From Candidatus Helarchaeota archaeon (GTDB taxonomy: Archaea > Asgardarchaeota > Lokiarchaeia > Helarchaeales > RDOG01): a stretch of DNA of 64,000 bases. Below are positions 2,375 to 28,360 of this stretch, one piece after another (the first letter of the stretch is position 1; every line of letters begins with the position of its first letter). The stretch spans positions 384,001-448,000 of the forward strand of contig JAHPZH010000004.1 in the NCBI GenBank assembly GCA_019058315.1. The letters are read 5' to 3'. The translations under genes were made by a program, and so were the position numbers. A model generated the notes under the pieces. The model was given only the letters and a program-made list of their open reading frames with translations. It did not search any database and was not told the origin of the DNA.

Positions 2375-2622
2375 AATAGATCCCTACTTGATTGTATAAC
2401 TAGAATTATAAAAATCCAATATGAGAAATTAGTATAGAAAAAGGAATGATACAATAAAAATCATTGTAATTTAAAAATTGCATTTTTATTTGTCTTTCTA
2501 TAATTGTTCAATTAAAATTTTCTCCGATAAAAATAATGCAATTTATTAAATTATCGGATCTAAAGAATTTCGGGTTATGTATATATATAAAACACATAAC
2601 ATAAAAATATAAGGGAAGTAAT

Positions 2623-3768
2623 ATGCCTCAAAAAGGTCAACTTGCATATATTAATCCAAAAATATTAAAATGGGCACGAGAAGAATCGGGATTAACTTTA
2701 AAGGAGGCTTCAAGCTCAGTATTAAATCAAAGAAAATTGGAGAATGCTGAACAAGGTTTAGATAAGTTAACTTTTAGACAATTAATATTAATTGCAAAAA
2801 AATATCGGAGACCTCCAGGTTTTTTCTATCTTAAAAATCTACCAGTTGAAAAAGAGTTACTTAATGATTTTCGAACTCTTGATTCTGTTAAAGTGAAATA
2901 TAGACCAAGATTGAGAGAACAAATTTTGAAGATAAAAGAGAAACGTGAATTTGCTGTTAATTTTAAAACATATAGTAAAAAATATGATTATTCTTGGATT
3001 AATCATATTTCAATAAAGGAAAAACCAGAAATTATTGCTAAAAAAATATTAAATTTATTTAATATCAAAATGGAACATCGCAAGAAGTGGAAAACGCCTT
3101 ATGATGCACTTAATGCTTGGAGAAATGTAGTAGAAAAAATGGGAGTTCTAGTATTCCAAATTTCTGGAATATTAGTCACCGAAATGCGAGGATTTTCTAT
3201 ATCTGAAATTCCTTTTCCAACAATAGCATTAAATCGAGGTGATGCGCCTTTAGGACGTGTTTTTACACTAATTCACGAGTTTTGTCATATAATGCTTAAA
3301 AAAGGTGGTATATGCACGATATTTGAAGGAGATAGTGATCATTTTAAGGTTGAAAAGTTTTGTAATGCAGTTACTGGTGCTGTGCTAGTTCCAAATGATA
3401 TATTAATTAAATCTGGGATTGTTCTAAAACATAAGACTGGTGAAATTTGGCTCCCAGACGAATTAAATTCATTAAAAAAATATTTTTGGGTGAGTCAAGA
3501 AGTTATTCTACGTCGTTTATTAATAAACAATTTGACTTCAAATGATTTCTATCAAGAAAAAAGAAACGAATGGGCTAAATTAATAAGAAAAAAAGCAGGA
3601 GGACCTGAAAAACCTTATACAAAGGTACTAAAAACAAATTCACATAATTTTATTAAAATTGTGTTAAATGCAATGTATAATAACAAAATCAATTTAGTTG
3701 ATGTTTCTTATTATTTCGACATGAGTTTAAAGCATTTGAAGAGTTTAGAGAAAAATTTAGAGGGGTAA
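2623..3768 (+). CDS. XRE-HTH + ImmA/IrrE-family Zn metallopeptidase
   Basis: N-terminal LKWAREESGLT HTH; FTLIHEFCH (HExxH) and EKFCNAVTGAVLVP. Confidence 0.9.
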   Translation: MPQKGQLAYINPKILKWAREESGLTLKEASSSVLNQRKLENAEQGLDKLTFRQLILIAKKYRRPPGFFYLKNLPVEKELLNDFRTLDSVKVKYRPRLREQILKIKEKREFAVNFKTYSKKYDYSWINHISIKEKPEIIAKKILNLFNIKMEHRKKWKTPYDALNAWRNVVEKMGVLVFQISGILVTEMRGFSISEIPFPTIALNRGDAPLGRVFTLIHEFCHIMLKKGGICTIFEGDSDHFKVEKFCNAVTGAVLVPNDILIKSGIVLKHKTGEIWLPDELNSLKKYFWVSQEVILRRLLINNLTSNDFYQEKRNEWAKLIRKKAGGPEKPYTKVLKTNSHNFIKIVLNAMYNNKINLVDVSYYFDMSLKHLKSLEKNLEG

Positions 3769-3788
3769 AAATTACAAAAGCACGGCTT

Positions 3789-4259
3789 ATGCCATTATAT
3801 CCAAATGGTGTTTATAGTTTTGATACGAGCGCATTTATAGAACCATGGAATAGACATTATCCCAGAGATATTTTCCCATCAATATGGGACGGAATTCAAG
3901 AATTAATTGTAAATAAGAAAATTCTTGTGACTAATATGGTTGAAATTGAATTAAAAAAACAAAGAGATGATTTGTATCGATATTTAAGGAACCTAAACCC
4001 ATTTGTCCAGCCTACTAAGGATGAACAAGAAGTTGTTAGACAATTAATAAATCACCCTGATTTTGATAAATGGATAATTAGCTATAAACATATTGCAGAT
4101 CCGTTCGTTGTTGCTCTTGCAAAAGTTCATAGTTTATCTGTAGTCACCTATGAAGATACCAGAGCTGAAAAAAATAAAATTCCAGCAGCTTGTCGCTTAT
4201 ATAGAGTTGATTGTATTAAATTTGTTGATTTTCTTAGAAGGGAACAAATAATAATTTAA
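3789..4259 (+). CDS. DUF4411-like PIN-domain nuclease
   Basis: FDTSAFI, ADPFVVALA, VVTYE, KIPAAC; usual partner of HTH-IrrE genes. Confidence 0.85.
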   Translation: MPLYPNGVYSFDTSAFIEPWNRHYPRDIFPSIWDGIQELIVNKKILVTNMVEIELKKQRDDLYRYLRNLNPFVQPTKDEQEVVRQLINHPDFDKWIISYKHIADPFVVALAKVHSLSVVTYEDTRAEKNKIPAACRLYRVDCIKFVDFLRREQIII

Positions 4260-4336
4260 ACAAATTTTTAATATAAAATGAATAAACAAAGTCCATAGAT
4301 TATTTTTAAATTCAAATATACTTAAAGTATATACCG

Positions 4337-4396
4337 GGCAGAAATAGAGGATTTAAGCGCAGAGTACAACGTGCTGCTTCCAAAAATAAAAAATAA
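4337..4396 (+). pseudogene. 3' fragment of the small SMP-like gene at 9206-9313
   Basis: Encodes GRNRGFKRRVQRAASKNKK* versus GKNKGFKSRAQRAASKNKK*; followed by a similar T-rich tail. Confidence 0.75.
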
Positions 4397-4451
4397 AAAA
4401 ATACCCCCTCTCTTCTTTTTTTCAATTAATTTTATTTTTTAAATCAAAATT

Positions 4452-5663
4452 TCATTTTTTGTATTTTTTTTTAAAAATAAAACCCTTTCTAAATATATGT
4501 GTAGCCCATTTGATCTTAAATTCATTATTTTTAATTCGATTTTCTAAAAAATCAAGGGCTTCTGTTGGTATATCTTGTTTTACTTTCAAGTCCTCAAATT
4601 TATTTAATATAGATTTATAAAATGATTGCATTTTTTTTCCATAACTATTACTCCATTCATAAGATATTTCCAGGGGAAATTTAATTTTTTTACAAAATCC
4701 GATAGATTTTTTCTTGTAATATTTATCATCTTCTAGAATTAATGAAATTTTATCATAAATTGCATGATAATCATCTGTTCTCTTACGAGGATCACCTTTA
4801 GCACCAACGATGATAATCAATCCCCTCTTTCTTAATGAATCGGCAAAACTTCTTAATTCCAATTTTAAATTATTAACTAATGAAATTTGAGTGAAAAAAT
4901 TACTAAAAATTACTAAATTATAGCGATTAGAATGTCTCCAATATGGAAAGTCATATTCAAATGAATATTGACTGAAATAATTTTCACCAATTTCATATTT
5001 AGTTTTTAAACTCATAAATAATTCTTGTTTACGTTTTCTAAAATCTAAACCCTTTGCATTATTAAAACTTCCATGTTGATAAGGCACTGACCATCTAAAA
5101 TCTATTGGTCTATATTTTTCATAATCCATTCTATATCTTTCTTCGTTTGTACCGTTTGCAAATTCAAGAAATCTATGTAACCAATTACGCCAACCATAAC
5201 TATTCTCAACATAATCCGTTTTAAATTTAAGTTCCTTAAAAACAAGTTTATTGGTTTCTTTTCCATATATTTTTAAAAGTGTATATATGTCTGAAATCGC
5301 AAATAACGAGGGAGCGGGACCTGTTCCAACACCTATAATATCTATTTTTTTTCTTTTAATTGGTAATTTGTAATATTTTAATAATAATTTCGAAATTAAT
5401 TGAAATCTATGGTATCTATCGAGAAAATGCAATATTGTATATGCTTCTGGTACTCCTTTTTTATTATAATCGACAGTATTACACTTTTTTATTACATCTA
5501 GTAAGTTTTCAGCTATTGATTTTGCTCTCTCCCTAGAAACCAAAACATAATTAATTAAATAATATTCTAATATATCTGATAAATAACAAAATCTTTTATA
5601 GAAATAATTATTTCTTTCTATCCAATTAATAATTTCTGTTGTATTATAAGGGGGGATTTTCAT
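4452..5663 (-). CDS. Hypothetical protein, possible class I SAM-methyltransferase fold
   Basis: IDIIGVGTGPAPS resembles motif I; YNLVIFSNFF resembles motif IV. Confidence 0.55.
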   Translation of the reverse strand: MKIPPYNTTEIINWIERNNYFYKRFCYLSDILEYYLINYVLVSRERAKSIAENLLDVIKKCNTVDYNKKGVPEAYTILHFLDRYHRFQLISKLLLKYYKLPIKRKKIDIIGVGTGPAPSLFAISDIYTLLKIYGKETNKLVFKELKFKTDYVENSYGWRNWLHRFLEFANGTNEERYRMDYEKYRPIDFRWSVPYQHGSFNNAKGLDFRKRKQELFMSLKTKYEIGENYFSQYSFEYDFPYWRHSNRYNLVIFSNFFTQISLVNNLKLELRSFADSLRKRGLIIIVGAKGDPRKRTDDYHAIYDKISLILEDDKYYKKKSIGFCKKIKFPLEISYEWSNSYGKKMQSFYKSILNKFEDLKVKQDIPTEALDFLENRIKNNEFKIKWATHIFRKGFIFKKKYKK

Positions 5664-5708
5664 GAAAGTACCATCTGATTTCGTTATAATTTCATTTCGT
5701 AACTATTC

Positions 5709-6761
5709 TTATAATGGTATTAAACCGCTCCATCTTCTAAATCGAATTTTTTCCTTTTTTAATCTTATTATACCTTCTTTATTAAGTGGTCTACACTCTG
5801 GACCAATTCTCACATAATATTTAATTTCACCATTTATTACTCCATGACATCGTGGCATTCTTGGAATGAAAAAGACAAGAATTACATTTCCATTTTCGAG
5901 TGTTATTTCTTGAAATAGATCGTTCTTTGTAGGTTCAATAAAAGGTTTTATATGGTGAAATGCTTTCAAAATATCTTCAACTTCACTTGGTAATACACCA
6001 TTTAGCGACTTGATAGTACTATCTTCTTCTAATACTCCTACTATAATGTGTCCTCCCTTTGTATTTGCGAATGCAGAGATAACTCTTGCAAATTTTTTCC
6101 CCCTCGCCTCTTTTGCTATAGATTTGAATTCAATAAATATACGTTTATTAAAATCAAGAAATGAACCTTCACGAATACTTCTTTTTTTCAAATTTATAAT
6201 TGTATTAATTGTTATCTTTTGAACATTTTCAGGAATAAGATATTTAATTTCTTTTAAGGAATCCCGACCCAAACTTGTTATTTTCCAATAATAATAATCA
6301 TTATCAATTAATCCCAGATCTTCAAGGTATAATCCAATTCTCACAAACAATTCCGTTTTAATTTGCTTATCTTCGGTTCTATTAGAGTTTATCTCTTTTT
6401 GAAGTTCTTTAAAAGCAAAACCATATTTTGCCGGATCTTTTTTCCATTCAGCATCTAAAAATTTGAGAATTTCAGAGCTAACTTGATCAAAAAACGGATC
6501 TTCAAGCAATTCTTCATGTGTTACTATACCTATAGAACCAATTTTAAGTTCAGGAAATTCCTCTCCGTGATAGGGTTGCCAACGAAAAAAATCCTTTGAC
6601 TTTCCGTCATATAATGCCCTCCTTAATGTATTTTCGTTTATATCTGGGATATGACCTTTAAGACTCTCCAAAATTTCTTCAAAAGATGACCTTTCGTCAT
6701 TTATTTCTTTTTCATATAGAATTTTTAATATTTGTAATTGGATATAATTGATTTTATCCAT
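5709..6761 (-). CDS. wHTH-containing protein with C-terminal AlbA_2 domain
   Basis: IEFKS...ISAFANTKGGHIIVGV...YYVRIGPECRPL; wHTH-like LEDLGLID...WKITSLGR. Confidence 0.8.
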   Translation of the reverse strand: MDKINYIQLQILKILYEKEINDERSSFEEILESLKGHIPDINENTLRRALYDGKSKDFFRWQPYHGEEFPELKIGSIGIVTHEELLEDPFFDQVSSEILKFLDAEWKKDPAKYGFAFKELQKEINSNRTEDKQIKTELFVRIGLYLEDLGLIDNDYYYWKITSLGRDSLKEIKYLIPENVQKITINTIINLKKRSIREGSFLDFNKRIFIEFKSIAKEARGKKFARVISAFANTKGGHIIVGVLEEDSTIKSLNGVLPSEVEDILKAFHHIKPFIEPTKNDLFQEITLENGNVILVFFIPRMPRCHGVINGEIKYYVRIGPECRPLNKEGIIRLKKEKIRFRRWSGLIPL

Positions 6762-7059: not shown

Positions 7060-7337
7060 TATATACCAACTTATAAGATTAATCTGCTTTTAATTTAATG
7101 ATTTGAACATTCATCAAGTTAATGTCCCCTTATGTAGCTATTTTTAAATAATAATATTGTAATATAATTTAATTTCGTTGTTCTAGGATATTTTTATAAT
7201 TCTATATTTTTATCAAAATATAATCTTTTTAATTTAGTAAGTTTTTCTAATCCTTTTAATTTTTTAATTCTATTATGACTCAAATATAAACCTCTAATTA
7301 AGTTAGATTTTCAAACCTTTCAATTTTTTCAATTTGG

Positions 7338-9047
7338 TTAAAATGTAGAAATATCACTTTTAATTGTAGAAGTTGAGAGATTAGATTTCAATTCATTTAA
7401 AAAAGGTAATAATTCAGGATAATGTATAGATACTTTTTCATAGATTCCTTTCGCTTTAACATAAGATTTTCTTTTAAGCAAAGAAAAATATAGTTCTTTG
7501 ATTATATTGGTATCATATTCATTTTCGTTATATGCTCCAAGACAAAAATCTTCTAATTCTTCCCAATTCTCCAACTTTTTTAAAATATTAACTATTAAAT
7601 TAAATAATTTGAGATTACGTTCTTGATGTTCATACCAACTATAAAAAGAATATTCTTTTGCACTTTCGAAATCATTTTGAATATAAAATACTTTAGCTCT
7701 ATAATATAAGAAAAATGGTTCTAAATGAATTAAATTTGGATTATTTTTTATGATTTTTAATGAACCTCCAATGAATAATTTAGCTTTTTTTAGATCTTGA
7801 TCTATATCTACGTAATATTCAATCAATAACCGCATGGTAATTAAATCATCCTTATAAATTTTAAGGGTTTTTTCTGTAAATTGTAGGAATTCTTGATATT
7901 TTTTAAGATTAAAATAAACTAGCTGCATTGAATGTAACATATCTATGTCATTTGGTCGATGATTAAGATATTTTTCACCCCAAAGAATCGATTCATCTTG
8001 TTTTTTTAAATTTAAATAAATTTTATTAAGAATTCTAAATATTTCTAATGCTTGATTTGAATTTGGTGAAATTGATTTAAGTTCAGATTTTAATTTCTTC
8101 TCCATTTTAATTAATGATTGTTTGTCAATAGGAATATCTTTCCAAGCATAAGAAAAACCTTTATCCTGCTCTAGAAATTTCCTCATAAAGAAATTAATTA
8201 TTTCAACAAGGATTTGTATTTGGTTATAATCCAACTCAAGCATAAAATTCTTAATTAAATCAACTCCAATATAATATCCTTCATTACTTAATTGGAAATG
8301 AAAATTTTCAAATATTAATTCTTGAAGAACTGCTCTTTGAGTTCTAAATCTAATTTCCATAAGAAGTGCCTCAAAAACCATATCATCTTCCATTAAAAAC
8401 CAAGGCTCACCATTTTTATCTCTCATAAAGTATATTTTTCGAATTTCACTCCATTTTTTTAAAAAATATTCTAATTCAATATTATTAATTTTAAAATGAT
8501 TTCTAAATTCTTTTTGTAGTAATTTTATAATTTCAGGTTGAACTCTTCTCCATTGTTCTGATTTAGAATATTTAAGATTAAATCGGGATATATAATAAGC
8601 AAAAATGTAAGCTTTTTCTTCTGTTTCAAGGAATTTTATAAAATCAAAATCTTCTATTTCTAAAAAATTTTGTACACAATCAATTAGTAGTGAATTTGGT
8701 ATGGAGCCAAATTGTAAAAGGAATTTATCTCGAATATTTTTAACTTGACGTTCTATTAATTTATATCTACGAACTCGGGATGAATAATCATCCTTCCCAA
8801 GGATTTTTTCTACTTCTAAGCGTCCTTTAATAGTTAATTTATTCCACTTAATTTTATCTTCATATTCAATTTCAATAAGTCCATTTTCCCTTAAAAACTT
8901 TAAATACTTGCTTATTGTATTCCTTGATAAGTTAATTTTTTTATTTTTAATCAATGTGGTGTAATTTGTTTTACCATTTTCATGAATATAAACCAAAATT
9001 CTCTGAGCGTTGTCTAAATCATTGTAATCAACCAAATTTTTCACCAA
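7338..9047 (-). CDS. Winged-HTH + TPR-repeat protein (probable regulator)
   Basis: LSRNTISKYLKFLRENGLIE...LTIKGR wHTH; helical TPR-like C-terminal half. Confidence 0.7.
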   Translation of the reverse strand: MVKNLVDYNDLDNAQRILVYIHENGKTNYTTLIKNKKINLSRNTISKYLKFLRENGLIEIEYEDKIKWNKLTIKGRLEVEKILGKDDYSSRVRRYKLIERQVKNIRDKFLLQFGSIPNSLLIDCVQNFLEIEDFDFIKFLETEEKAYIFAYYISRFNLKYSKSEQWRRVQPEIIKLLQKEFRNHFKINNIELEYFLKKWSEIRKIYFMRDKNGEPWFLMEDDMVFEALLMEIRFRTQRAVLQELIFENFHFQLSNEGYYIGVDLIKNFMLELDYNQIQILVEIINFFMRKFLEQDKGFSYAWKDIPIDKQSLIKMEKKLKSELKSISPNSNQALEIFRILNKIYLNLKKQDESILWGEKYLNHRPNDIDMLHSMQLVYFNLKKYQEFLQFTEKTLKIYKDDLITMRLLIEYYVDIDQDLKKAKLFIGGSLKIIKNNPNLIHLEPFFLYYRAKVFYIQNDFESAKEYSFYSWYEHQERNLKLFNLIVNILKKLENWEELEDFCLGAYNENEYDTNIIKELYFSLLKRKSYVKAKGIYEKVSIHYPELLPFLNELKSNLSTSTIKSDISTF

Positions 9048-9313: not shown

Positions 9314-9383
9314 TCCTTTTCTTCTTTTTTTAAATACTTATTATTTTCTAACAACTATTAATTAAAATAGTATAAGAATTAGG

Positions 9384-9468
9384 TGGGGGGGGCGGGATTT
9401 GAACCCGCGAACTCCTTCGAGAGTCACTTTCAAGGTGACCGCATTTGACCAGACTTTGCTACCCCCAT
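9384..9468 (-). tRNA. Atypical class II tRNA with anticodon TGA (Ser) and a Leu-like body; possibly a pseudogene
   Basis: T-arm GCGGG-TTCAAAT-CCCGC; anticodon arm GTCAC-CTTGAAA-GTGAC; variable arm CTC-GAAG-GAG; acceptor ATGGGGG/CCCCCCC with 2 mismatches; A73. Confidence 0.8.
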
Positions 9469-10745: not shown

Positions 10746-11414
10746 CTAAATCTTTGATTGATGTAGTAACCGACTTAGATTTTCTAAGCCTTCCAATTTC
10801 TCGATTTGATTATTATCAACATAAATTCTTTTTAATTGAGAGAGATTCACTAAACCTTCTATTTTTTCAATTTGATTATAACTCAAATACAAGGTTTCTA
10901 AATTAGAGAGATTTTCTAACCCCTCTATTTTTTGAATCCAATTGTGATGAAGAAATAAAAATTTTAATTGGAATAGTTTCTCGAGTCCCTCAATTTTTTG
11001 AATATAATTACCGAGCAAGTCTAAAATTTGTAATTGTGATAGATGTTCCAAACCTTCTATTTTTTTAATTTTATTCCATGCCAAAAATAATTGTCTTAGT
11101 CTTACAAGTTTTTCCAACCCTTCAATTTTACTAATTTGATTATTTTCAAAGTCCAAAATTTCCAATTTCTTAAGATCATCTAGATTTTCTATCTTTCTAA
11201 TTTTATTTTTTATAAAGAAATCTCCACCAATTTTTAAGTATTTTAATTGAGAAAAATTACTAATAATTTTGGGTACTTTTTCCATATCATTGCTATATAA
11301 GGCAAGTTCAATAACTCTTCCTCTCTCATCAATATCATAATCTAGATGCTCAATTTCTTCCCAATCTTCTAACTCCGAAATGCGTTTTTTTTCTAATGGA
11401 TGTTTAATTTCTAT
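10746..11414 (-). CDS. SDS22-like leucine-rich repeat protein (N-terminally extended from 11285)
   Basis: Repeated LxxLxLxxNxIxKIEGL; frame open 43 codons upstream and includes the LRR cap DYDIDERGRVIELAL. Confidence 0.85.
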   Translation of the reverse strand: MEIKHPLEKKRISELEDWEEIEHLDYDIDERGRVIELALYSNDMEKVPKIISNFSQLKYLKIGGDFFIKNKIRKIENLDDLKKLEILDFENNQISKIEGLEKLVRLRQLFLAWNKIKKIEGLEHLSQLQILDLLGNYIQKIEGLEKLFQLKFLFLHHNWIQKIEGLENLSNLETLYLSYNQIEKIEGLVNLSQLKRIYVDNNQIEKLEGLENLSRLLHQSKI

Positions 11415-11416
11415 AA

Positions 11417-14400
11417 TTATACCCCCTGAACCTTAATTTTTTTACAATATTTGATTACAGCATTGACTCCATGATCATAAACAATTTGATCAGATTTTGA
11501 TAAAGGGTTGTTAGATAAATCCAATTTCTTTAAACTTGAAAGGTCTTCTAATCCACTAATATTTTTAATCTGATTTCCATAAACTATAAATTGCTGTAAA
11601 TGTTTTAGATGTCCTAAATTTTCAATAATTTTAATATCATTTTTTCCGAGATTCAATCTTTTTAATTTAAACAACTTATGCAGACCACTAATTTTTGAAA
11701 TTCTATTATTGTGTAAATTTAGCACTTCTAATTTGGTTAGATCATCAAGTTCCTCTATTTTGGAGATTTGATTTAGAGACAAATCTAAAACACGTAAATA
11801 TGAGAAGTTAGAAATTATTTTTGGAATTTTTTCAAGAAAAAGGTTATTTAAATTAAGTCTTACTACATGACCATCATAATCCATCTCATAATCATATGAT
11901 CCTATACGATATTTTGTGATTAATTCCTGAATTATCTCTCCATCTTTAATCTCTTCTATTTCAGGTTTTTCTCCAGGTTTTATTATCTGATTTATTATTT
12001 CAAATTGGTACTGAATTTGTTGTGTTTCTATCCTTCTTTCAAATGAAGCAAAAACACCATATTCGGAATCATTTAATAGATAATTAGCTAAGTTTTTCGC
12101 TTCAAAATCAATAATGTCGGACAAAGGCATTATTTGATGGTCATAGAAGAAAGGAAATGAAAATAATCTATTAAATAATCCATCCAATTTATCATTTTTC
12201 CCTCCCACTATATAAAATACTCTCTCATTCCATTCACTATTTTTCCAATTTATATCAGTTTCGTCGAATTTGCTAGCTCTAAACATTAATAATAAATAAA
12301 AACGAAGTGGAACTCTATAAGCATCCATAAAATCATATATAAGCTCTCTATTCTCTGGACTTTCTATAGGTTTAGATTTTCCCTCTCCATAAGAACGATA
12401 ATGGAGTATTCCTCTTCCTGGCCAATATTTTGAAAATCCAACTTTACCCAAAGCTTCACTAGCTCTTTTTTCTAGATTGAAAAATAAATAATTTAATGCC
12501 ACATTATACCTATCTAGTGCTCGAGCACCATAAAATATAGCTGTAGTGGCATGCCGTTGATATTGACGACTTGAAAATCTATCCTCTGGGGGTAGTGCTT
12601 TTTTAACACCATCCCATGCTTCATCATCGCAATTCGCTTCTATAGATCTTAATTTTCCTATAATCTCATCAAATTTTTTCTCATTATCACCTTGAGATTC
12701 CTTTAAAATTTTCTCTTTAATATAATAAGCTGTTATAGCATAATCTAACTGTCTTAATACAAGCAAATTGACCTTTTTTGGAAAAATTTTATGTTTTTTT
12801 AATTGTAGAGTATAAAAGATACTTGATTTAATCTTACTAATTACCATTTCCCAAGCTATTGGGAATAATTTTCCTTCTTCTCTCGCTTTTTGAATTGCTT
12901 GACGTAATTTATCAGCTTCAGCAGCTTTTTGTTTTTGTATTTCTATTTCATAATCAGAAAGTTTTTCAATTTCAATGTTTAATTTACTAATGAATTCTAG
13001 GTCTTCGTCGAAAATTTCTCCACCCGCAAGTCTTAATTTATACACTTCAAACGTATAATACGAACGACCATCAACTTTGATAATATGTAAATTAAATTGT
13101 TCCCCTCTTTCTAATGACAATTTCTTTCCTGGTCCAAGATGAATTAATTGCTTAGTACCGTAAATAGTAACCGAGTAAATTCCTCTATATTTACTTATTC
13201 TATCGGACCCGATGTTTGTTCCTTTATAGAACACAAATCCTCCTTTTTTATACCTAATTAGAACCTCACAGTTATTGCAAATATACATTTTATTCTTTGT
13301 AGGCATTCTTAGAGTCCCTGATTTACGACAATTGGGACATATGATTTTATCTTGTTCATCCTTGTTGAATTTATTAAAAGGATGATAATTTCGGGATTTA
13401 TATTTGAAATGAATACAAGCAGGTTCATTTTTTAACCGTCTCTTTTGTTTTTTTCGACAACAAGATTTGGGACCATCTTCCCTAACTTTTATGGAATTTG
13501 CGATAAAAAATTCACATTCTTGGCAAAAAATCCGTTCTTTCTCCTCAGGTTTCATTCCTGCTAAATAATAACGCTTAGACGGACGCCCCTTTATTATCAG
13601 GTCAAACGAAAATTCCAAATCTTTACTAATTTTGTCCAATTGATACCAAATAGCAGATTTCTTAATATTATTATATTTACGCTTTAATATATGATGTAAT
13701 TCTTTTATTGTCGCCCCTTTTTTTCCACTATTTCCCAATTCTTCTTTTATAGAATCCAGATATATCGAACTTCCATGTTTCTTCCTACGTGTGCGTTTAG
13801 AAACATGAAAATGAATTGTGTCTTTATCATCATTATATCGTTCAATTATATATCTAATCCGCCAAAATATTGGTTTATTTTCTTTTAAATTTAATATTTT
13901 CTTCTCGTCTATATCATGATAGTTTTTTCTCCCTAGGGCAATAGAATGAAATAATCTAGCAGCCTTAATAACATACGTTGAACAGAAAAACCATATTCCA
14001 GTTTTTCTACAAACTTCTACATCTCCCCCAAAATACTTATTTTTTTTAATAAATTTTTTATTTTTTAGTTTATTTTGAGAATATTTTTGGATTATTATTT
14101 TATATTTATTATTCTCTCGTTCAATATACTCTTGTGAAATTACACCCTTATATTGTGAAATTATTTCTTCCGCATGAGATTCACCAATTATTTCACCAAT
14201 TCTAAGTATGATCTCCTTACTCTTGGGTTTTTCATTTTGGTTAAAAAAGTCTAAAATTTGCATAAACGCTTTTCTATTTAGCTGAGTCTCTACAAGGCCC
14301 TCCCCTAGATAAGTTAGAGCATATTTTTTCTTAACATCCCGAATTAAATTCCTATTTTTTTTCATCAGTTCTTTATTCTTTACTGGAACTAGATCGGGCA

Positions 14401-15835
14401 TCAAGGATTTTAAAATCAGATCAAGGGGTTTTACATCGATACAGAAAGTTATTGATAATATGAAAGGCACTCGAAACATATATTCTACAAATTTATCGGG
14501 ATGCAAGACTTTCTCAAGATGCTCCATAATCTGAGCTTTTGAACGCTGACGTAAAAATAAATATTCAAGAATAATTTTTGGCAAATCTTTAATCGTTATT
14601 TGGCTATTTATTGCTTCTAGTGTATAACCCCGGAAAATTGTTTTATTTTTATCTAGAAATTTGACACTCTTTTTAAAGTCCTGATAATCTCTATAATACA
14701 TTAAATGAACTATTGTACCTAATAATTCTCTACATCTACCAATTATTTGTTCAAGCTCAATTTTTGAATATTTTTCAGGATCAGCTATAATTATTTCTTC
14801 AATATCCTTTACATCTACACCAGCTTCTAAAATGGGGCTACAACTCAAAATTTTGATTTTACCTGAATTAAAACTATCGAAAATTTGCTTTTTTTCATAA
14901 GTCGCAAGCCCTGCATGAATAAATCCGAAGATTTCAATATTATAACCTTTAAATTTTTCTTTGAGATGGTCTGAAATTTCCTGAGCTTTTTCTCTTGATT
15001 TGATAAAAATTAATAATTTAGCTTTTATTACTTCTCTATATTTTCTTAAGAAATTCCTGACTAATCCTGTAATTTCATCAAGTGGGGGATCACTTGCTTT
15101 TTGATGTAATTCAAATTTGAATTTGCGATTAGATGGATAGTAAAGTAATTCTGAACCAAATCTTTCCGACCAATATTCAGCAGATTCACGGTCAAATGTT
15201 CCAGTTAGAAAGCAAAAAAGAGGTCTGCTTTTCTTATTATCGAAATATTCAAATTTTAACTTATAAATCATGGTCTCTAATTTCATTCCCCTAGAAGGGT
15301 CTCTAATAGTATGGATTTCATCTACTATTATTGCTCCAAAAATGTCTTTTCTGTCAAACAACTCATATTTTTGAATTCGAAATAAAAAAGCTCGAAACGC
15401 TTCATAAGTACAAAGGAGAACTACTCGCCGATCTCTTTCTTTAGGTTTTTTCTTACTTTTACGGTCTTGTTGCCCTTTCTTCATTTTTGGTCTTAATTCT
15501 AATAGGTCTGGTCTTGATTCACCGACTAGTTTTAATATTTTAACCTTACTCCCAAAAAACCACCTTAACTCCTTTTCCTTTTGATATACCAACGTAGTAG
15601 TTGGTTCGAGTATAACACCTATTTTTCCTTCATCTGTTCCGACATAAAGGCCAATAAAAGCAACCCAAGTCTTTCCAGAATTTGTTGGGGCACAAAGAAA
15701 TATACTTATACCAGACAATAATTTATAAATCGCCAATTTTTGACTTTCAAATAAATCTGCAGTTGTAACACCATTTCTACGTGCGAATTGATCAAGTAGA
15801 TAAAGTAATTCGCTTCTATTTTTTAATAAAGCTAT
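11417..15835 (-). CDS. cas1: SF2 (Ski2/Hel308-like) helicase - wHTH - Zn finger - divergent Cas1 - LRR fusion (track start 15736; likely start near 15835)
   Basis: Helicase motifs APTNSGKT, DEIH, TGT, HAGL, LEAGVD, QIIGR; Cas1 motifs LRSIEA, FSSRQ, DRYNVALNYLF, GILH, LIYDFMDAYR; C-terminal LRRs. Confidence 0.8.
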   Translation of the reverse strand: MALLKNRSELLYLLDQFARRNGVTTADLFESQKLAIYKLLSGISIFLCAPTNSGKTWVAFIGLYVGTDEGKIGVILEPTTTLVYQKEKELRWFFGSKVKILKLVGESRPDLLELRPKMKKGQQDRKSKKKPKERDRRVVLLCTYEAFRAFLFRIQKYELFDRKDIFGAIIVDEIHTIRDPSRGMKLETMIYKLKFEYFDNKKSRPLFCFLTGTFDRESAEYWSERFGSELLYYPSNRKFKFELHQKASDPPLDEITGLVRNFLRKYREVIKAKLLIFIKSREKAQEISDHLKEKFKGYNIEIFGFIHAGLATYEKKQIFDSFNSGKIKILSCSPILEAGVDVKDIEEIIIADPEKYSKIELEQIIGRCRELLGTIVHLMYYRDYQDFKKSVKFLDKNKTIFRGYTLEAINSQITIKDLPKIILEYLFLRQRSKAQIMEHLEKVLHPDKFVEYMFRVPFILSITFCIDVKPLDLILKSLMPDLVPVKNKELMKKNRNLIRDVKKKYALTYLGEGLVETQLNRKAFMQILDFFNQNEKPKSKEIILRIGEIIGESHAEEIISQYKGVISQEYIERENNKYKIIIQKYSQNKLKNKKFIKKNKYFGGDVEVCRKTGIWFFCSTYVIKAARLFHSIALGRKNYHDIDEKKILNLKENKPIFWRIRYIIERYNDDKDTIHFHVSKRTRRKKHGSSIYLDSIKEELGNSGKKGATIKELHHILKRKYNNIKKSAIWYQLDKISKDLEFSFDLIIKGRPSKRYYLAGMKPEEKERIFCQECEFFIANSIKVREDGPKSCCRKKQKRRLKNEPACIHFKYKSRNYHPFNKFNKDEQDKIICPNCRKSGTLRMPTKNKMYICNNCEVLIRYKKGGFVFYKGTNIGSDRISKYRGIYSVTIYGTKQLIHLGPGKKLSLERGEQFNLHIIKVDGRSYYTFEVYKLRLAGGEIFDEDLEFISKLNIEIEKLSDYEIEIQKQKAAEADKLRQAIQKAREEGKLFPIAWEMVISKIKSSIFYTLQLKKHKIFPKKVNLLVLRQLDYAITAYYIKEKILKESQGDNEKKFDEIIGKLRSIEANCDDEAWDGVKKALPPEDRFSSRQYQRHATTAIFYGARALDRYNVALNYLFFNLEKRASEALGKVGFSKYWPGRGILHYRSYGEGKSKPIESPENRELIYDFMDAYRVPLRFYLLLMFRASKFDETDINWKNSEWNERVFYIVGGKNDKLDGLFNRLFSFPFFYDHQIMPLSDIIDFEAKNLANYLLNDSEYGVFASFERRIETQQIQYQFEIINQIIKPGEKPEIEEIKDGEIIQELITKYRIGSYDYEMDYDGHVVRLNLNNLFLEKIPKIISNFSYLRVLDLSLNQISKIEELDDLTKLEVLNLHNNRISKISGLHKLFKLKRLNLGKNDIKIIENLGHLKHLQQFIVYGNQIKNISGLEDLSSLKKLDLSNNPLSKSDQIVYDHGVNAVIKYCKKIKVQGV

Positions 15836-16199: not shown

Positions 16200-18590
16200 A
16201 TGAGAAATAACATTAAAAAAAAGCGCTTCTTAACAATATTTCTAGTTTTTATTATATTTTCCTTTATCATTTTTGAATTTTCACCAAAAAAATATTTTCA
16301 ATTCAATTCATTTAATGATAGGGGTCAAAAAAACCATTTTATTATACCTATAACAGATTTACAGGATTTTTTTGAGTTAGATACCAATTCATATATTTGG
16401 ACACAAACACAAGTTGTTTCCATTGAAAGCTCTGATAGTATACTTGATTTATCATTATTTATAGACGATTCTGACATTTTACATCTCGCTTGGAGTGATT
16501 ATACAGATTATCAAGGATCAGGAGAAGATGCGGATTATCTTTATAAAAGTTGTAATAGTACTTCAGGAATTTGGACACCAGCTGAGGTAATTTCCACAGA
16601 AAGTGCAAACCGTTCTCACTTTGGAAATATTGATGTAGATAAATTTGGTAATATAAATATTGCTTGGTGTGATATTACTGATTACGGGGGTGCAGGAATA
16701 GATTATGATATATTTTATAAATATAAAGACGCTAACACAGGTCTTTGGACTATTACTGAGGTTATTACCTCAGGGGCTGTTAATTCATCTGCCGATCCAG
16801 AAATTCGATCAGATAATTTTGGAAACTTGCATATGGTATGGTATGATTCTACAGACTATGGAGGAACTGGTTCAGATATTGATATCTTCTATAAATTTCG
16901 CAATCACACTACTGGTACGTGGTCTATAATTGAACTAGTTTCAACAAATACCACAGAAAATTCCATGTGGCCCGATATGACTTTAGATGAATTTGGAAAT
17001 GTTCATGTAGTTTGGGAAGAATGGAACAGTTCTGGACTTGAATATAATATTTTTTATAAAATGCGCAATTTTACAACAGGAAATTGGACAAAAATTGAGG
17101 AAGTTTCAACAGAAAGTTCTGATTTTTCCGAAGCTCCTGCTATATCAGTTGATTCTTCTGGTAATATACATGTTGTTTGGAGAGATAAAATGGATTATAT
17201 GGGTGCTGGTATAGATGAGGATATATTCTATAAGCAAAAGTATACAAACAATAATAGTTGGTCTGCTGCTGTATTAGTTTCTGATGGGTGTAATAAAGTT
17301 TCTAGTTCTCCTGAAATCTTTATGGGTAATGATGGAAAATTACATTTTGTATGGAGAGATGATACTGAATATAATGGAGCAGGAGGAGATTGTGATATCT
17401 TCTATAAATGTTTAGATTTAAATAATAATGAGTGGTCGACGAAAGAAGTGGTTTCCACTGAAAGTACTGCCAGCTCCTCATATCCAAAGCTCGCTGTAGA
17501 TGGTTTGGGAGTAATTCATGTAGTTTGGTTGGATGGCACGAATTATAATGGTTCAGGTGCGGATTCTGATGTCTTTTATAAGAAAAAAATTAAATTTACC
17601 CCACAAAATAATGAAGATCCAGATTATAGTCTCCCATTTTATACAACACCACCAACTTATAGATTTTGGCCTTATTTAATTTTAATGTTTATCGTTTTAT
17701 TGATCCCCTTACCTTTTATGATATATAAAAAATATTCTTCCAAATCCTCTCAACTGATTTTTGATAAAACATCACCTGAACAAAGAACATTATTTAGATC
17801 AAAATTAGATAGTTATCCATTATATAGAGAGGAATTACCATTTGAACAATTTGAAAAAACCTATGAAAAAGATAAAGTAAAGCATATAGATAGAAAATCA
17901 ATTGATTACTCAATAAAGGTTAAAAAAACTGAAACTAAAAAATCATTAGTTCCACGTTCGCCAAGGGTTTCACCACTAAGCTCGAAATTAAAGAGATATT
18001 CAATGTACAAAGAAGATGTTCCCTTTGAAAAATTAAAAAAAGCCTATTTAGAAAATAAAGCAAATGATCTTGACAAAAAATCTATTGAAGAATCAATAAC
18101 AGATAAAAAAATTAAAACCGAAAAACCATTAATTTCACATTCATTAGAAGAACAAAGCTCTCTTATTCTAGCCCTCAAGGATGAGAATATTTTTATACGT
18201 ATTAATGCTGCTAAAGAGCTCGGAAAATTTAATGATATAAAATCAAGTTACGTACTAATTAATGCCTTTAAAAACAACATTGAAAATAAAGAAGTTCAAA
18301 ATGCGGTGGAGTTATCTCTAATAAAAATTGGCGAAACAGCAGTAAAGCCATTACTTGATTTAATCAAAGGTTTGGAAATAAGCCTATTAACTAGCTCCTT
18401 TTTTAGAACAGATTTGTTATTTTTCGTTTTTAGAGTATTAAAAACAATTGCTACTAATAAAGTAGGGAAAAAAGCTGTAGACAAAATCCCGTTTAGAGAT
18501 GAACATCTTTATATTTCACGATTTCATCAATTAGCTCATAGAGCTAGATTATTTGCAGAAATAATAATTGGTAAATCAAAAAATTCGTGA
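16200..18590 (+). CDS. Single-pass receptor-like protein: extracellular beta-propeller repeats, TM helix, cytoplasmic HEAT repeat
   Basis: About 7 GNxHxVWxDxTDYxGxGxDxDIFYK repeats; TM FWPYLILMFIVLLIPLPF; ALKDENIFIRINAAKELG HEAT. Confidence 0.75.
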   Translation: MRNNIKKKRFLTIFLVFIIFSFIIFEFSPKKYFQFNSFNDRGQKNHFIIPITDLQDFFELDTNSYIWTQTQVVSIESSDSILDLSLFIDDSDILHLAWSDYTDYQGSGEDADYLYKSCNSTSGIWTPAEVISTESANRSHFGNIDVDKFGNINIAWCDITDYGGAGIDYDIFYKYKDANTGLWTITEVITSGAVNSSADPEIRSDNFGNLHMVWYDSTDYGGTGSDIDIFYKFRNHTTGTWSIIELVSTNTTENSMWPDMTLDEFGNVHVVWEEWNSSGLEYNIFYKMRNFTTGNWTKIEEVSTESSDFSEAPAISVDSSGNIHVVWRDKMDYMGAGIDEDIFYKQKYTNNNSWSAAVLVSDGCNKVSSSPEIFMGNDGKLHFVWRDDTEYNGAGGDCDIFYKCLDLNNNEWSTKEVVSTESTASSSYPKLAVDGLGVIHVVWLDGTNYNGSGADSDVFYKKKIKFTPQNNEDPDYSLPFYTTPPTYRFWPYLILMFIVLLIPLPFMIYKKYSSKSSQLIFDKTSPEQRTLFRSKLDSYPLYREELPFEQFEKTYEKDKVKHIDRKSIDYSIKVKKTETKKSLVPRSPRVSPLSSKLKRYSMYKEDVPFEKLKKAYLENKANDLDKKSIEESITDKKIKTEKPLISHSLEEQSSLILALKDENIFIRINAAKELGKFNDIKSSYVLINAFKNNIENKEVQNAVELSLIKIGETAVKPLLDLIKGLEISLLTSSFFRTDLLFFVFRVLKTIATNKVGKKAVDKIPFRDEHLYISRFHQLAHRARLFAEIIIGKSKNS

Positions 18591-18615: not shown

Positions 18616-18843
18616 TTCAAAAAAATGATGCCTTTTTCTAAACACTTTTCAAAAAATCGATATTATAAAAAATTGATCAAAAAGGAGTTTATTGATCAAA
18701 AAAAATTCTATGCAGTTTTCTAAACGCTTTTTAAAAAATTGTATTTTACTAGGTGATTTTTGATCAAAAAAATTTCTATGCAGTCTTCTAAACGATTTTC
18801 GAAAAATTGAACTTTTCAGGATCAAAAAAAATTTTCATTTTTA
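18616..18843. repeat. Imperfect ~50-bp tandem repeats
   Basis: TTGATCAAAAAAA(A/T)TTCTATGCAGT(T/C)TTCTAAACG..TTT..AAAAATTG at 18692-18741 and 18760-18809; degenerate copies at ~18616 and ~18820. Confidence 0.75.
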
Positions 18844-19685
18844 CTGAAATCAAAGAGATCCCTTAACTATAAGAATTGAGATAAATTATAAAAATTTGTA
18901 ATTAAATAACCTGATTTAAGTGGAAAATAGAATAAAAAAATTAGTTATTGAATAAGTATAAGTTTCTTAATTTCATTTACTAAATTTAAAATTTTTAATT
19001 TATTACAATGTTATGTTGTTTAACGCTGAAAAAAATGAGAGTTTCTACAAAAATATAGTTAAGTTAATCTTTGGATTTGAAAGAAGAATTTTAAAGAGTT
19101 ATAATTGAATCGCTATTAATTCTAAACATTAAATTGGAAAATATTTTTTAAATTTAAAGATGGAATAATGTTTTTCGATATTTATGTTCATAAGAAAGCT
19201 TCTTAATGATATTAAATTTAAAAACAATAAATAACTCTTAATTATTTTGTAAACTAAGTATATTTTTCTAATTTTATAATTTAAGCTAAAAAATTTTCAA
19301 ACTTCTAAATTCATTTAAATTAAATTTTAATTTTTATATTAGAAAGCTTATACAGCTAAAATTTTAATCAAAATTAAATAAACTCTTTTTAAATTAATTG
19401 GCTTATTAAATTTGTGATTGCTTAATAATAATTCAAATTAAAGTATATACCAGAATACTTAATTATAATTTAAGAAAATTTATATAAAATTTTCGTTTAA
19501 TTTGAATAAAGTCGATAATAATCAGCCTTGATATCCTCATTCGATGAAAAAATTTATTTAATAAATTTTTCTTTTTTTACTAAGAAATTTTTAAATTAAT
19601 GATAAAAACTTCTTTTTAATAAAATTTTAAAGATATTAAAATTGTTATCTTTTCTATTTTCTGCCCAAATTCCTACCCGAACCGT

Positions 19686-19731
19686 CTAAATAACCAGTTT
19701 TAGGGGTGTTTAAATATAGAATTAACAGTTA
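19686..19731 (+). promoter_or_regulatory. 46-bp repeat copy 1, overlapping the probable cas7 operon promoter
   Basis: CTAAATAACCAGTTTTAGGGGTGTTTAAATATAGAATTAACAGTTA; TATA-like TTTAAATA at 19709-19716. Confidence 0.7.
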
Positions 19732-19773: not shown

Positions 19774-20619
19774 TTGAAAACAATAAATGTGGTTTTTTTA
19801 TGTGAATCAATAACAACAAGACAAGATCTCTTTGTCACCTTTGGAAATAGTCATGGAATCTTTGATCAAAAAAAGTTATCGGGGTATACTAAACTTGGTC
19901 GCATACCTGGTAAGACCTTGAAAGGTTGGTTAAGACATGGAATGGAAAAACTATTGTTGAAAATGGGAATATCTATTTGTCATCCTCTACCTGCAAATAC
20001 GATAACAAACGAGAGGAATAAAAAATATTATAAAGAAGATATGGCAATCGGTTACCATCCACGAGGAGAATGTGAAAAACAAGGCGGATGTCCGATATAT
20101 AATATGTTTGGGGATTTAGATAAACCAAGTAATTTAATTGTTCCCAGTGTTTATTTTTATCCTTCAGTTGGAGGCGGAACAATGGCAGCTAATATTAATA
20201 AAATTTTTGGATCTGTCGGAAGAGGAAGAATTGAAATTGACCATGAAAGTCCTAGAAAACGATCAAATAGTTTTCAAACATATATGAGCAACGAAACAAT
20301 TGTAGGAACTTATATTGAGGCACCTTGGAATCTTGTAATTCGAGAAGATAACGAACTTCATGAAATTTTAATTTTAAAAACTTTGGAATATCTCTTCGAA
20401 AAAAACACAAATTCCGATATGACATTTATGGTAGGCGGACAACGAACTGCTGGATGTGGAAGAGCTGTTGCGGTTAAATTAAATGATAGCGGAAATTATT
20501 TGATAAAAAATAGAAATTCCCTTGGTATAAAGCAAGAAAAAGTGGAGTTAATTAATGGAAAATTCGATGATTTCATGAAGGAGTTAAAAAAGAAATTTCC
20601 TATAAAGGCGGTAAAATAA
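19774..20619 (+). CDS. cas7: Cas7-like RAMP protein with Zn finger (HRAMP/ARAMP type)
   Basis: RIPGKTLKGWLRH, C..C..CPIYNMFG, Gly-rich loop VGGQRTAGCGR. Confidence 0.85.
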   Translation: MKTINVVFLCESITTRQDLFVTFGNSHGIFDQKKLSGYTKLGRIPGKTLKGWLRHGMEKLLLKMGISICHPLPANTITNERNKKYYKEDMAIGYHPRGECEKQGGCPIYNMFGDLDKPSNLIVPSVYFYPSVGGGTMAANINKIFGSVGRGRIEIDHESPRKRSNSFQTYMSNETIVGTYIEAPWNLVIREDNELHEILILKTLEYLFEKNTNSDMTFMVGGQRTAGCGRAVAVKLNDSGNYLIKNRNSLGIKQEKVELINGKFDDFMKELKKKFPIKAVK

Positions 20620-20620
20620 A

Positions 20621-21328
20621 TTGGAATACAAAGTTTTAAGATTGCTCTTTGGATTCTTAAGCGAATATGTGGGAAATCCGCTCTATATCTCTGGAAATGC
20701 AATTCGCCATGCTTTTCATAAAAAAATTAATACATCGGTTGGATGTTTTACAGAATTAAGACGATTGGATGCAATAAATAGCTATGAAGCTTTTATTAAA
20801 ATCAGAATAGAGAAGCCTTTTTTAATACCTCACACTCAATCTTTTTTTTCTAAGATTGAAAGGAAGAAAAAACATCTAATTTATTTCACACCTACTTCAA
20901 TAACCTTCGATATTATTAATCCTCCTGAGAATCTTATTAATTTTATTAAAAATTTGAATATAATTCAGTTGGGTGGTTTAAGAAATGAAGGTTTTGGAGC
21001 TGTTGAACTTCTTGATCATCTACTTATTGATTTAAAAAAAATTGAATATCCTGATATTGGGACACATGTAACTCTTATATCACCAATATTATATGTTCCA
21101 AAATTTCTTGAAACTTATCAGTGTCGTCAGGAATATGTAATTTTTTGGAATAATAGTAAAAAAAATCGGATAAAAATAATCTCACCTGGACAATTTTTCA
21201 GAATAAAAAAGAATAAAAACATAAAAAAAATTGCAGAAAAAGGGATCTTACGCAAGGTTTTATTTGGTCAGTTCGGGTTTGGTGAATTCTTTGTTAATAA
21301 TTGGCCAAAGGAGGAGGAAAATGAATAA
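20621..21328 (+). CDS. cas5: Cas5-like RAMP protein (HRAMP/ARAMP type)
   Basis: YVGNPLYISGNAIRHA, QLGGLRNEGFG and terminal GQFGFGEF Gly loops. Confidence 0.7.
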   Translation: MEYKVLRLLFGFLSEYVGNPLYISGNAIRHAFHKKINTSVGCFTELRRLDAINSYEAFIKIRIEKPFLIPHTQSFFSKIERKKKHLIYFTPTSITFDIINPPENLINFIKNLNIIQLGGLRNEGFGAVELLDHLLIDLKKIEYPDIGTHVTLISPILYVPKFLETYQCRQEYVIFWNNSKKNRIKIISPGQFFRIKKNKNIKKIAEKGILRKVLFGQFGFGEFFVNNWPKEEENE

Positions 21329-21998
21329 TATACTATCAATTCTACGACATGATCTTCATAAATTGAGGATAAAAGGATTTAAACCCCATAAAGAAGCCTT
21401 AGTTGAGCCTGAAATGAAAAAAGCAGATTCTATAGCCAGTTGGTTTTCAAGAAATGGCAATAAAATAGAGTTCGATATTAATAAAAGACTGTATTTGAGG
21501 GATTCTTATTTGATTAAAATTGAAAAAAATAAAATCAGAAATCAAATCATTAAAAAAAGAGAAGAAATTTTTAAAATTTTTAATGAAAAAAATCCTACAA
21601 AATTACATTCTCAGATTTTAAACTCAAAGGTTCTAAATAAATTTTCAGAGGCACGAATTTGCCCCCATAGTAGCTATAAATATCATTTGCTTTTAACTTG
21701 CAGTATTTATTGGAATTTGAAAAATAGTAATTGTTGGCAAAAATTATATTTAGCAGAAAATGCCGAAATTGATAGTCCGTTTCAGATTATCTACAAAGAT
21801 GATCAACGTGAATGGGCACTTACTCCTAACGGAGGAATGTCCCGCGTTTTCCCACAGTTTTCTAGAACTTGGTTGAGACGTCAAACATTTAGTTTAGGAG
21901 GTGATGATCTCATCCTCGATGGACTCCTATCCCAAATCGGGAGTTGGAGTGCTGCACTTGCAACAATCGAGGATTGGAGAGAGCTTCAAAAACCATAA
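21321..21998 (+). CDS. cas10: Miniature Cas10-like protein (225 aa)
   Basis: ATG 21321 after GAGGAGG; HDLHK, ADSIASWFSR, PHSSYKYHLLLT, LGGDDLIL motifs in Cas10 order. Confidence 0.65.
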   Translation: MNNILSILRHDLHKLRIKGFKPHKEALVEPEMKKADSIASWFSRNGNKIEFDINKRLYLRDSYLIKIEKNKIRNQIIKKREEIFKIFNEKNPTKLHSQILNSKVLNKFSEARICPHSSYKYHLLLTCSIYWNLKNSNCWQKLYLAENAEIDSPFQIIYKDDQREWALTPNGGMSRVFPQFSRTWLRRQTFSLGGDDLILDGLLSQIGSWSAALATIEDWRELQKP

Positions 21999-22051
21999 AT
22001 ATAGCAAGGGAAAAATTAGCTTGACTCGGTGCCTAACAATGCATAGTACCA

Positions 22052-22097
22052 CTAAATAACCAGTTTTCGGGGAATTTAACTATAAAATTAACAGTTA
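22052..22097 (+). repeat. 46-bp repeat copy 2
   Basis: 41/46 identical to 19686-19731; identical to 28361-28406. Confidence 0.85.
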
Positions 22098-22309
22098 ATC
22101 AAAGCTCTAAATAGAATAATCCTAAAAACAAAGTTACGTCTCGGTCTCAGCAGTGTAGACCGAAAAGAGGTAAAATCTGGAAATAGAAATTATCTCAATG
22201 TATAGTACAACTAAATATAAAGAACCATCTTTATGCATCATATCCAGAAGCGGATTCACTAAGTTTCTCAGTTCACTTTAATAACCTTAATAATTAATCT
22301 TTCATAATA
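22098..22309 (+). ncRNA. Candidate structured RNA downstream of the RAMP operon
   Basis: Hairpins TCGGTCT/AGACCGA, GAGGTAA/TTATCTC enclosing TCTG-GAAA-TAGA, TGTA/TACA, ATAAAGA/TCTTTAT, ATCC/GGAT; conserved in copy 28407-28619. Confidence 0.4.
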
Positions 22310-23399
22310 CTAATCATATTCCCTAACTAATTCAAAAGTTTGTTTTAAGAACTTAGAAGTTCCTTTTTTTTGCATTAAATCTAGAAGTGGGTTTATGGGA
22401 AGAAAAATTATTTGGTTTTTAATAAAATTATCAAGAATTTTTAAAAATTTTAAAGATCCTGAGACACTAGTTGCCAATGAGAGGATTGCTGAAAATTTAT
22501 TTAAATCTGTATATCTTATGCCTATTATCGTGTTTATCCACCACCCAAATTGCTCTGACAATTGATGTTTTGCGATTAAAAGGGCTTTTTCAACATTTCT
22601 TTCCCGTTCAAAAATATCAATTACTTGTTCTTTAGAGATAGTGTAGAATTTTTCTAATGAACCATTTTTTAAATCTAAACCTAAAATCGTTTGTAATTTT
22701 ATATCTTGATCGAAAATGAACATTATTGTCCTAACTTGATATCCATAAATGAAATTAAAAGCTCTATTATAACTTAGTATTGAAGGGGGATTTAATTTTT
22801 TTAAATCAAAATTAAAAAATGTTTTTCCCCAACGTCTAAATAACACAATTTTACCATCAGAAGTCCATAAATCATCTGATTTGGTAATAAATTCTGTAAA
22901 TTTGATAAGGAAATTTTTAAAATTATATTTAGACATTATATCTTTCAAATAATTAAATATTTCAAATCTTGTTATAAAAGCGGTATTTACTTTCAGATAT
23001 TTTTCATTATAGAATACCTGATATTTTTTATGAAATTGTTTAGCGAGTTCTGCCATAAGATCCTGCATTGAATGTTTCTTCTTTTTGATTTTTTCAAATC
23101 TATGCTCAATTTTTTTATTATCCAGAAATGTAAAAACCAACTTATAAGGTGTTGTAAGAATTACAAATGATGCTATTTTCTTTTCATTTATCAAGGAAAA
23201 AACAACATTTTGAGGAGGTAATAATTTCGTAATTACGTTTCTAAAGGTTAAGGCATCGAAATTATCATTATCTGTAATAAATTTTTTAAGAAAATCTAAA
23301 AATAAGGGAGGATTATAAACTTGAATTCTTTCTTCTTTATACATTTTAGCTAAAAAATTCCAAAGAGCTGCAATATAGTCTAAAAATTCATATTTTAAT
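22310..23399 (-). pseudogene. 5'-truncated duplicate of the gene at 28620-30200
   Basis: Homology starts abruptly at 23399 (equivalent to 29709); reading frame intact. Confidence 0.8.
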
Positions 23400-27822: not shown

Positions 27823-27883
27823 CAATAATAAACTCTGCTTCTTAATCTTTTTTTTTTCGAAAAATATCTATTTAGTTATCAAT

Positions 27884-28307: not shown

Positions 28308-28360
28308 ATATTGCATAGGAAAAATTTGCCTGACATAGTGCCTGACAATGCATAGTTCCA

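Follow-up and report, generated by a model that had tools for sequence, protein, structure and literature searches.

A Hel308-type helicase-Cas1 fusion gene and a Cas7-Cas5-HD operon with guide-like RNA units in a putative mobile element of a Helarchaeota archaeon

The stretch analysed here, 64,000 nucleotides (nt) of a Candidatus Helarchaeota archaeon (GenBank assembly GCA_019058315.1, contig JAHPZH010000004.1, positions 384,001 to 448,000; hereafter the window), carries a gene that joins a helicase, a Cas1 domain and leucine-rich repeats (LRRs) in one polypeptide. Lying 4 kb from this fusion is an operon for Cas7, a Cas5-like protein and a predicted HD-type subunit. The fusion represents the Asgard Cas1 (aCas1) of ARAMP, a type of locus already described in the literature. 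The initial annotation had overlooked this operon, together with its guide-like RNA and the indications of mobility. The fusion gene and the gene at its end comprise the following features.

11417-15835, minus strand: helicase-aCas1-LRR fusion gene, start codon non-canonical or uncertain
13870-15790, minus strand: Hel308/Ski2-type helicase, two RecA folds with intact motifs followed by winged-helix and helical domains
13562-13759, minus strand: additional winged helix-turn-helix (wHTH) of presumed function, modelled as three helices and a hairpin
13268-13525, minus strand: two Cys4 modules, C771/774/793/807 and C833/836/853/856, putative zinc sites
11951-13186, minus strand: Cas1 domain, with E at 12640, H at 12403 and D at 12334 and 12325
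11486-11866, minus strand: LRR tail, clade-specific, in place of a DHH plus RecA-like tail
10746-11420, minus strand: second LRR gene, abutting the stop of the fusion

The minus strand from 15841 to 11417 is a single open frame, with 1,472 codons counted from 15835. Pfam domains follow one another in the order DEAD (amino acids (aa) 31-217), Helicase_C (268-368), Cas_Cas1 (964-1179; 23.7 bits against a cut-off of 22.3) and LRR (1324-1450). The open frame, the Pfam matches and the structural models together confirm the initial annotation, which had described one polypeptide joining a helicase, a wHTH, two zinc-type modules, Cas1 and LRRs. That annotation had also raised a misassembly of separate genes, which is rejected because the helicase-Cas1 fusion recurs across many independent assemblies. 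The fusion is split in two loci, by the Ns of an assembly gap in L005 and at a different position in L006. The first ATG, GTG or TTG of the frame, at 15736, lies 3' of the Q motif (15751) and its use would remove that motif; the start is therefore non-canonical or lost, and an ATA at 15835 is a plausible start codon. Given the uncertain start and a 796-aa gene that intervenes before the operon, the window copy may be partly decayed.

The helicase retains the Q motif, Walker A (15688), DEIH (15322) and motif VI (14749). Hel308/Hjm is the best structural match for a model of the N-terminal 880 aa, and the combination of intact superfamily 2 (SF2) motifs with winged-helix and helical domains places the protein with the Ski2-like/Hel308 helicases. 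Motif VI is atypical, as first noticed from the sequence, and has the same form in homologues, so it is a family trait and not decay. All eight cysteines of the Cys4 modules are invariant in the five closest proteins. No HD domain was found in the fusion polypeptide; with no HD nuclease fused to a helicase of Hel308 fold, its identification as Cas3 is rejected, as it had been at the outset.

The Cas1 region was modelled by AlphaFold with a predicted local distance difference test (pLDDT) score of 87, and the top 50 Foldseek matches to this model are exclusively Cas1 proteins and casposases (best E 2.5e-12), so that the expected Cas1 fold between about 12050 and 13160 is borne out. The metal-binding E, H and acidic DFMD positions proposed earlier also hold: among 24 homologues the E and H are invariant and both D of DFMD nearly so, and the residues align with those of Archaeoglobus fulgidus Cas1 and the Methanosarcina mazei casposase. 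With its two-domain Cas1 fold and catalytic E, H and D/E the domain belongs to the Cas1 superfamily, and it is predicted to be an integrase. The family is rare, with 27 representatives among 1.8 billion proteins. A Cas1 profile is positive in 16 of 400 genomes of the phylum, a few of these weak matches being other Cas1s, and the source genome holds five paralogues of the fusion. Helicase-linked aCas1 is reportedly mentioned by Makarova et al. 2020 (CRISPR J 3:156).

The fusion faces, across the 796-aa gene, the operon and the RNA units behind it:

16200-18590, plus strand: 796-aa repeat/membrane/HEAT gene between the two divergent modules
19687-19731, plus strand: cas7 promoter segment including a TATA-like box, predicted DNA target of guide 1
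19774-20619, plus strand: Cas7 (RAMP, Csm3-like)
20621-21328, plus strand: Cas5-like RAMP (weak Cas5_IIId match, E 0.015)
21321-21998, plus strand: DUF8574 homologue with invariant HD-x-H and distal D, predicted HD-type subunit
22038-22058, plus strand: repeat R1, directly before guide 1
22053-22097, plus strand: guide 1, a copy of the operon's own cas7 promoter with mismatches on a 6-nt register
22141-22196, plus strand: two stem-loops of a putative second RNA unit (z = -4.0)
22197-22217, plus strand: repeat R2, 19/21 identical to R1; predicted right end of the element near 22211
27849-28526, plus strand: internally deleted second copy, with upstream region, end of the HD gene and both RNA units

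These genes fit the description of ARAMP. Cas7 and Cas5 are diverged type III-like proteins (the Cas5 match being weak), and there is no array of clustered regularly interspaced short palindromic repeats (CRISPR) in the window. The host is an Asgard archaeon, as shown by an actin of 448 bits in the genome and by the archaeal operon context of the homologues. The HD-x-H and distal D of the DUF8574 protein are shared with a Cas5-HD fusion protein in a sister family. The 796-aa gene is absent from the other loci and is probably cargo or a later insertion.

A copy of the cas7 promoter points to an RNA guide. A 46-nt match joins 19686 and 22052 in the window, and a copy of about 40 nt of the own cas7 promoter follows the HD gene in all eight complete ARAMP loci. 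In the seven loci first tested it lies 50-75 nt behind DUF8574 every time, and the own promoter scores best in six of them. Genome-wide, the only non-self match of guide 1 is the cas7 promoter (27/29; the next best is 22). The mismatches between copy and promoter are concentrated on a 6-nt register, with 22 of 35 positions mismatched on register (63%) and 15 of 203 off it (7%); the Fisher P of 9e-13 is overstated, the register having been picked after looking and the loci being related. The sister family independently shows the same register (68% mismatch against 2-17%), and so does locus L127, held out and fetched afterwards, whose promoter copy carries four mismatches; here the evidence is a 35-nt core match, the whole-region shuffle test being uninformative owing to AT richness. 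An unpaired base at every sixth position is a known effect of the Cas7 thumbs on a guide-target duplex. The every-sixth-base mismatches are thus, on sequence grounds, the signature of a Cas7-bound guide on DNA. The target should be DNA because guide 1 covers the TATA region, which is not transcribed. As in CreR-like mini-arrays, a repeat-flanked spacer matches the own cas promoter. The guide-1 slot is present, and a matching promoter absent, in L113, a deleted remnant, and in L093.

The second unit ends at R2. In L001 and L005 this repeat falls on the stop codon of the adjacent gene, and in L003 and L113 it sits shortly ahead of a start codon; because of this placement it is read as the element end, with flanking DNA in the guide slot. 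For the sequence behind R2 or between the units, no second target was found in the flanks or the source genome.

The partner of the fusion is exchangeable. Among loci whose DNA upstream of the fusion is visible, it faces Cas7-Cas5-DUF8574 in eight (the window, L001, L003, L005, L024, L025, L028 and L127), TnpB in nine (L012, L014, L015, L026, L027, L035, L036, L056 and L126) and a LAGLIDADG-domain gene in L013. The two main partner types interleave on the Cas1 tree, where one ARAMP copy and one TnpB copy form a sister pair (support 100/99). In genome G001 the fusion genes of L035 and L036 are 93% identical and their TnpBs clearly different, a recent partner exchange. Other neighbours vary as well: two paralogues are each followed by a small winged-helix/coiled-coil gene, the orientation of which is opposite in the two loci (L013:6374-6895 and L014:15418-15954), and a RadA-like gene downstream converges on the fusion in L022 and L025. 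In more distant aCas1 families (L043-L051) the helicase is a separate downstream gene, and some of these lie beside TnpB and LAGLIDADG-domain genes. The L052 contig, from a genome of the same archaeal order, is labelled with a bacterial genus, probably a labelling issue.

Flanks differ among all ARAMP loci, and at three of the sites other genomes lack the insertion. The DUF359 and S24e genes, 38 nt apart in the source genome, are separated by the element in L001; the L005 element begins at the stop of a HEAT gene in a block that is empty in the source genome; and the position behind a 526-aa gene is unoccupied in G002 and G003. Two TnpB copies that are 81% identical share a sharp boundary with different flanks, and G001 carries two copies that are 93% identical. 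Deleted remnants that retain the RNA end occur at 27849-28526, on contig C11 and in G003. A 1.5-kb duplication (21925-23399 versus 28234-29709, 88%) contains the RNA end and a truncated 526-aa gene and could be a local re-insertion with captured flank.

Several further observations concern possible ends and surroundings. A tRNA-Ser(TGA) gene at 9382-9468, about 1.3 kb beyond the second LRR gene, is a candidate left boundary and the only hit of an Rfam scan of the window. The TnpB-type elements of L027 (near 4650) and L036 (near 9200) end about 100 nt upstream of what appear by eye to be tRNA genes with introns, missed by ARAGORN. Tandem 68-nt repeats lie at 18619-18856, in a 1.2-kb non-coding stretch 5' of cas7, and at 27849-27948, and three repeats of 79-80 nt lie just upstream of the fusion in L001 (9716-9953); both sets are possible binding sites or internal ends. 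The motif GTTCACTCA of PMC10691335 has one similar heptamer at about 22271 that is not conserved in other ARAMP loci. The genes clustered at 323-6761, two of Schlafen/AlbA_2 type, one for an IrrE-like peptidase, its DUF4411/PIN partner and one for a 403-aa protein of unknown function, look like a defence or cargo island.

Based on the architecture, the linkage and swapping of partners, the empty sites, the promoter copy and the 6-nt register, all read directly from the DNA, we propose with a probability of about 0.5 that the locus is a mobile element in which aCas1 is the transposase and ARAMP stands in for TnpB as an RNA-guided accessory, the first RNA unit autorepressing and the second marking, and perhaps cutting, the empty site. 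Cas1 would move the element by joining its ends to target DNA, while the Hel308 motor, wHTH and zinc modules would unwind or track DNA at the ends or the target. The exchangeable accessory facing the fusion would be TnpB in some copies and Cas7-Cas5-HD here. ARAMP would bind short RNAs transcribed behind the HD gene. Unit 1 would guide it to the element's own cas7 promoter and repress it; unit 2 would end at the element boundary and use flanking DNA as guide, as TnpB RNAs do, and would therefore mark the empty insertion site. The HD subunit may cut that site, favouring retention or homing. Cutting of empty sites for retention has been described for TnpB (10.1101/2023.03.14.532601, 10.1101/2023.11.20.567912). 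If the guide-RNA reading is true, it would answer whether ARAMP systems are RNA-guided; since the locus offers a candidate RNA, its predicted DNA target and the register on which mismatches would be tolerated, an experiment with three proteins and one RNA could address the question. The link of a Cas1 transposase to two interchangeable RNA-guided effectors would also be relevant to the way in which Cas1, TnpB and RAMP complexes became associated, and a small programmable integrase or DNA-binding tool could be derived from the locus.

Some findings weigh against this proposal. No terminal inverted repeat (TIR), target-site duplication (TSD) or left end was found for the window copy, L001, L003 or L005, and R2 is not evident in L028 or L127. 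The HD assignment of DUF8574 is by motif only, Atlas and PDB-profile searches having given no name for the protein. In L006, the nearest relative, whose contig spans 5.6 kb, no partner lies immediately upstream, and the source genome has a single complete ARAMP operon, which the 796-aa gene separates from the fusion. Moreover, a model in which the flank alone serves as guide does not account for several guides of the sister family that lie inside the element and match DNA at a distance of 50-650 nt.

That sister family (G307/G308) consists of the fusion followed by Cas7, a Cas5-HD gene and scaffolds of about 140 nt with 3' guides. One guide matches its own promoter, and another matches a gene 50-650 nt past the end of that copy in L037-L041, five of the six complete elements; four of these matches beat all 200 shuffles. 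They lie on the same strand, with mismatches at codon-wobble and 6-register positions. Of the other scaffolds, many lie directly against flanking genes or lack a match nearby. Searches for TIRs and TSDs in eight sister-family copies gave nothing convincing. Scaffolds in G307 (L089-L097) and G304-G308 are often stand-alone, and the sequence behind them often starts 5-8 nt before a start codon.

We tentatively consider, as a lesser prospect, an RNA-guided Cas1 integrase in which the type III-derived Cas7-Cas5-HD complex, with a scaffold-guide RNA, binds DNA and directs the Hel308-Cas1 transposase or is reprogrammed by it through Cas1; if true, this would add a type to the CRISPR systems and establish a novel class of transposon that is guided. 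An unlikely but better-surviving rival to our proposal is integration as in CRISPR-associated transposons, with ARAMP or TnpB finding the target and helicase-Cas1 inserting nearby, at a distance that the helicase lets vary. The sister guides matching a gene just past the copy's own end speak for it, as does the ending of ARAMP elements at stop codons or just before start codons. However, the same helicase-Cas1 clade swaps unrelated effectors, which argues against a specific protein contact; the three catalytic motifs are all intact in the partner TnpBs of L014 and L015, in contrast to Cas12k; in the window's family no internal guide was found that matches a flank; and TnsB-, TnsC- and TniQ-like genes are absent from all loci examined.

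Distinctly improbable is a minimal, array-less adaptive system in which Cas1 installs captured DNA pieces as guides behind an RNA scaffold. Sister scaffolds number up to 22 per genome, and some form arrays of three that differ in their guides and have terminator hairpins; the promoter copy, too, must have been written at one time; and most family members carry, past Cas1, a DHH domain (invariant H, DxDG, D and DHH) and a RecA/Rad51-like domain, both suited to processing. Against this, Cas2 and Cas4 are absent, as is the leader-array expected with Cas2 in a CRISPR adaptation module, guide 1 is old and fixed, the two window copies differ by point changes and not by guide replacement, and no guide matched foreign DNA in a search that covered the local loci and the source genome.

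The LRRs had been suggested to be a protein-sensing or partner-binding input to the integrase, and this part of the initial annotation fares poorly. Only 3 of the 27 family members have the tail (the window protein, P0002 and P0003), they form one clade (support 100/100), and the closest relatives of the tail are ordinary host LRR proteins (41 open reading frames (ORFs) in the source genome). Because of this restriction and likeness the LRRs are accessory, not a defining input; the tail is a lineage-specific replacement that perhaps serves as a protein-contact surface. The second LRR gene likewise follows the fusion in L005. At 7206-7374 LRR-coding-like DNA lies outside any long ORF, probably a gene remnant. 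It is very improbable that the fusion is a domesticated defence protein whose LRRs recognize a foreign protein and thereby activate the helicase and Cas1: tail and second LRR gene are kept in three genomes and Schlafen/AlbA and PIN-like genes lie nearby, but most of the family lacks LRRs and the LRR clade sits at different chromosomal sites. Equally remote is the idea that the downstream copy is a second promoter, co-regulated with cas7, that does not guide ARAMP; the copy does span the BRE/TATA-like region upstream of a folded RNA unit, but a promoter gives no reason for the 6-nt periodic mismatches, a C substitution lies within the TATA-like box in five of seven copies, and in the sister family the copy follows a complete scaffold, in the position that other guides take.

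The mobile element proposed here overlaps with several known systems. ARAMP with aCas1 has been published in outline (PMC8730458); its mechanism is called enigmatic and whether it binds CRISPR RNA (crRNA) unclear (PMC8730458, PMC12669027), and under the 2025 CRISPR classification a crRNA-binding ARAMP would qualify as a new type (PMC12669027 supplement). The locus shares with published ARAMP/aCas1 the Asgard host, the Cas7 and Cas5 RAMPs, a nuclease-like gene, a divergent Cas1 and the lack of a CRISPR array; the guide-like RNA units, DNA target, 6-nt register, empty sites and TnpB exchange go beyond it. The aCas1-TnpB loci appear in outline, in the passages available of PMC10691335, as a likely transposon; unlike the 'Cas1H-Asgard-1/2' described there, the window copy has ARAMP in place of TnpB, and those passages hold no helicase fusion, ARAMP exchange or LRR tail, features seen here. 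Such evidence as points to an RNA-guided, DNA-targeting, TnpB-swapping ARAMP is absent from the available passages of PMC8730458, PMC12669027 and PMC10691335. As in casposons (families 1-4), Cas1 would be the integrase of a mobile element, and a casposase is among the top structural and profile matches; unlike casposons, the element has no PolB (the gene was found neither from the tRNA-Ser to the right end nor, at homologous loci, in the interval that separates fusion and partner), its Cas1 is fused inside a Hel308 helicase, and its partner is predicted to be RNA-guided. No TIR or TSD was found in a search for which the right end of the element alone had been placed. IS200/IS605 elements with TnpB likewise have an RNA unit that ends at the element boundary with the flank as guide and a proposed role in retention, but the transposase here is Cas1, not Y1 or serine, and the effector is a multi-subunit RAMP complex. 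In CreA/CreR mini-arrays (PMC10120712), too, a spacer with a partial match to a cas promoter is bounded by two repeat-like sequences, and there is autorepression, which is predicted here; the present locus differs in having no parent CRISPR array, in its RAMPs being derived from type III and not Cascade, and in being part of a mobile element. Finally, Cas3 and Cas1-Cas2/3 also link an SF2 helicase to a Cas protein, whereas the helicase described here has a Hel308 fold, lacks HD in its polypeptide and is fused to Cas1.

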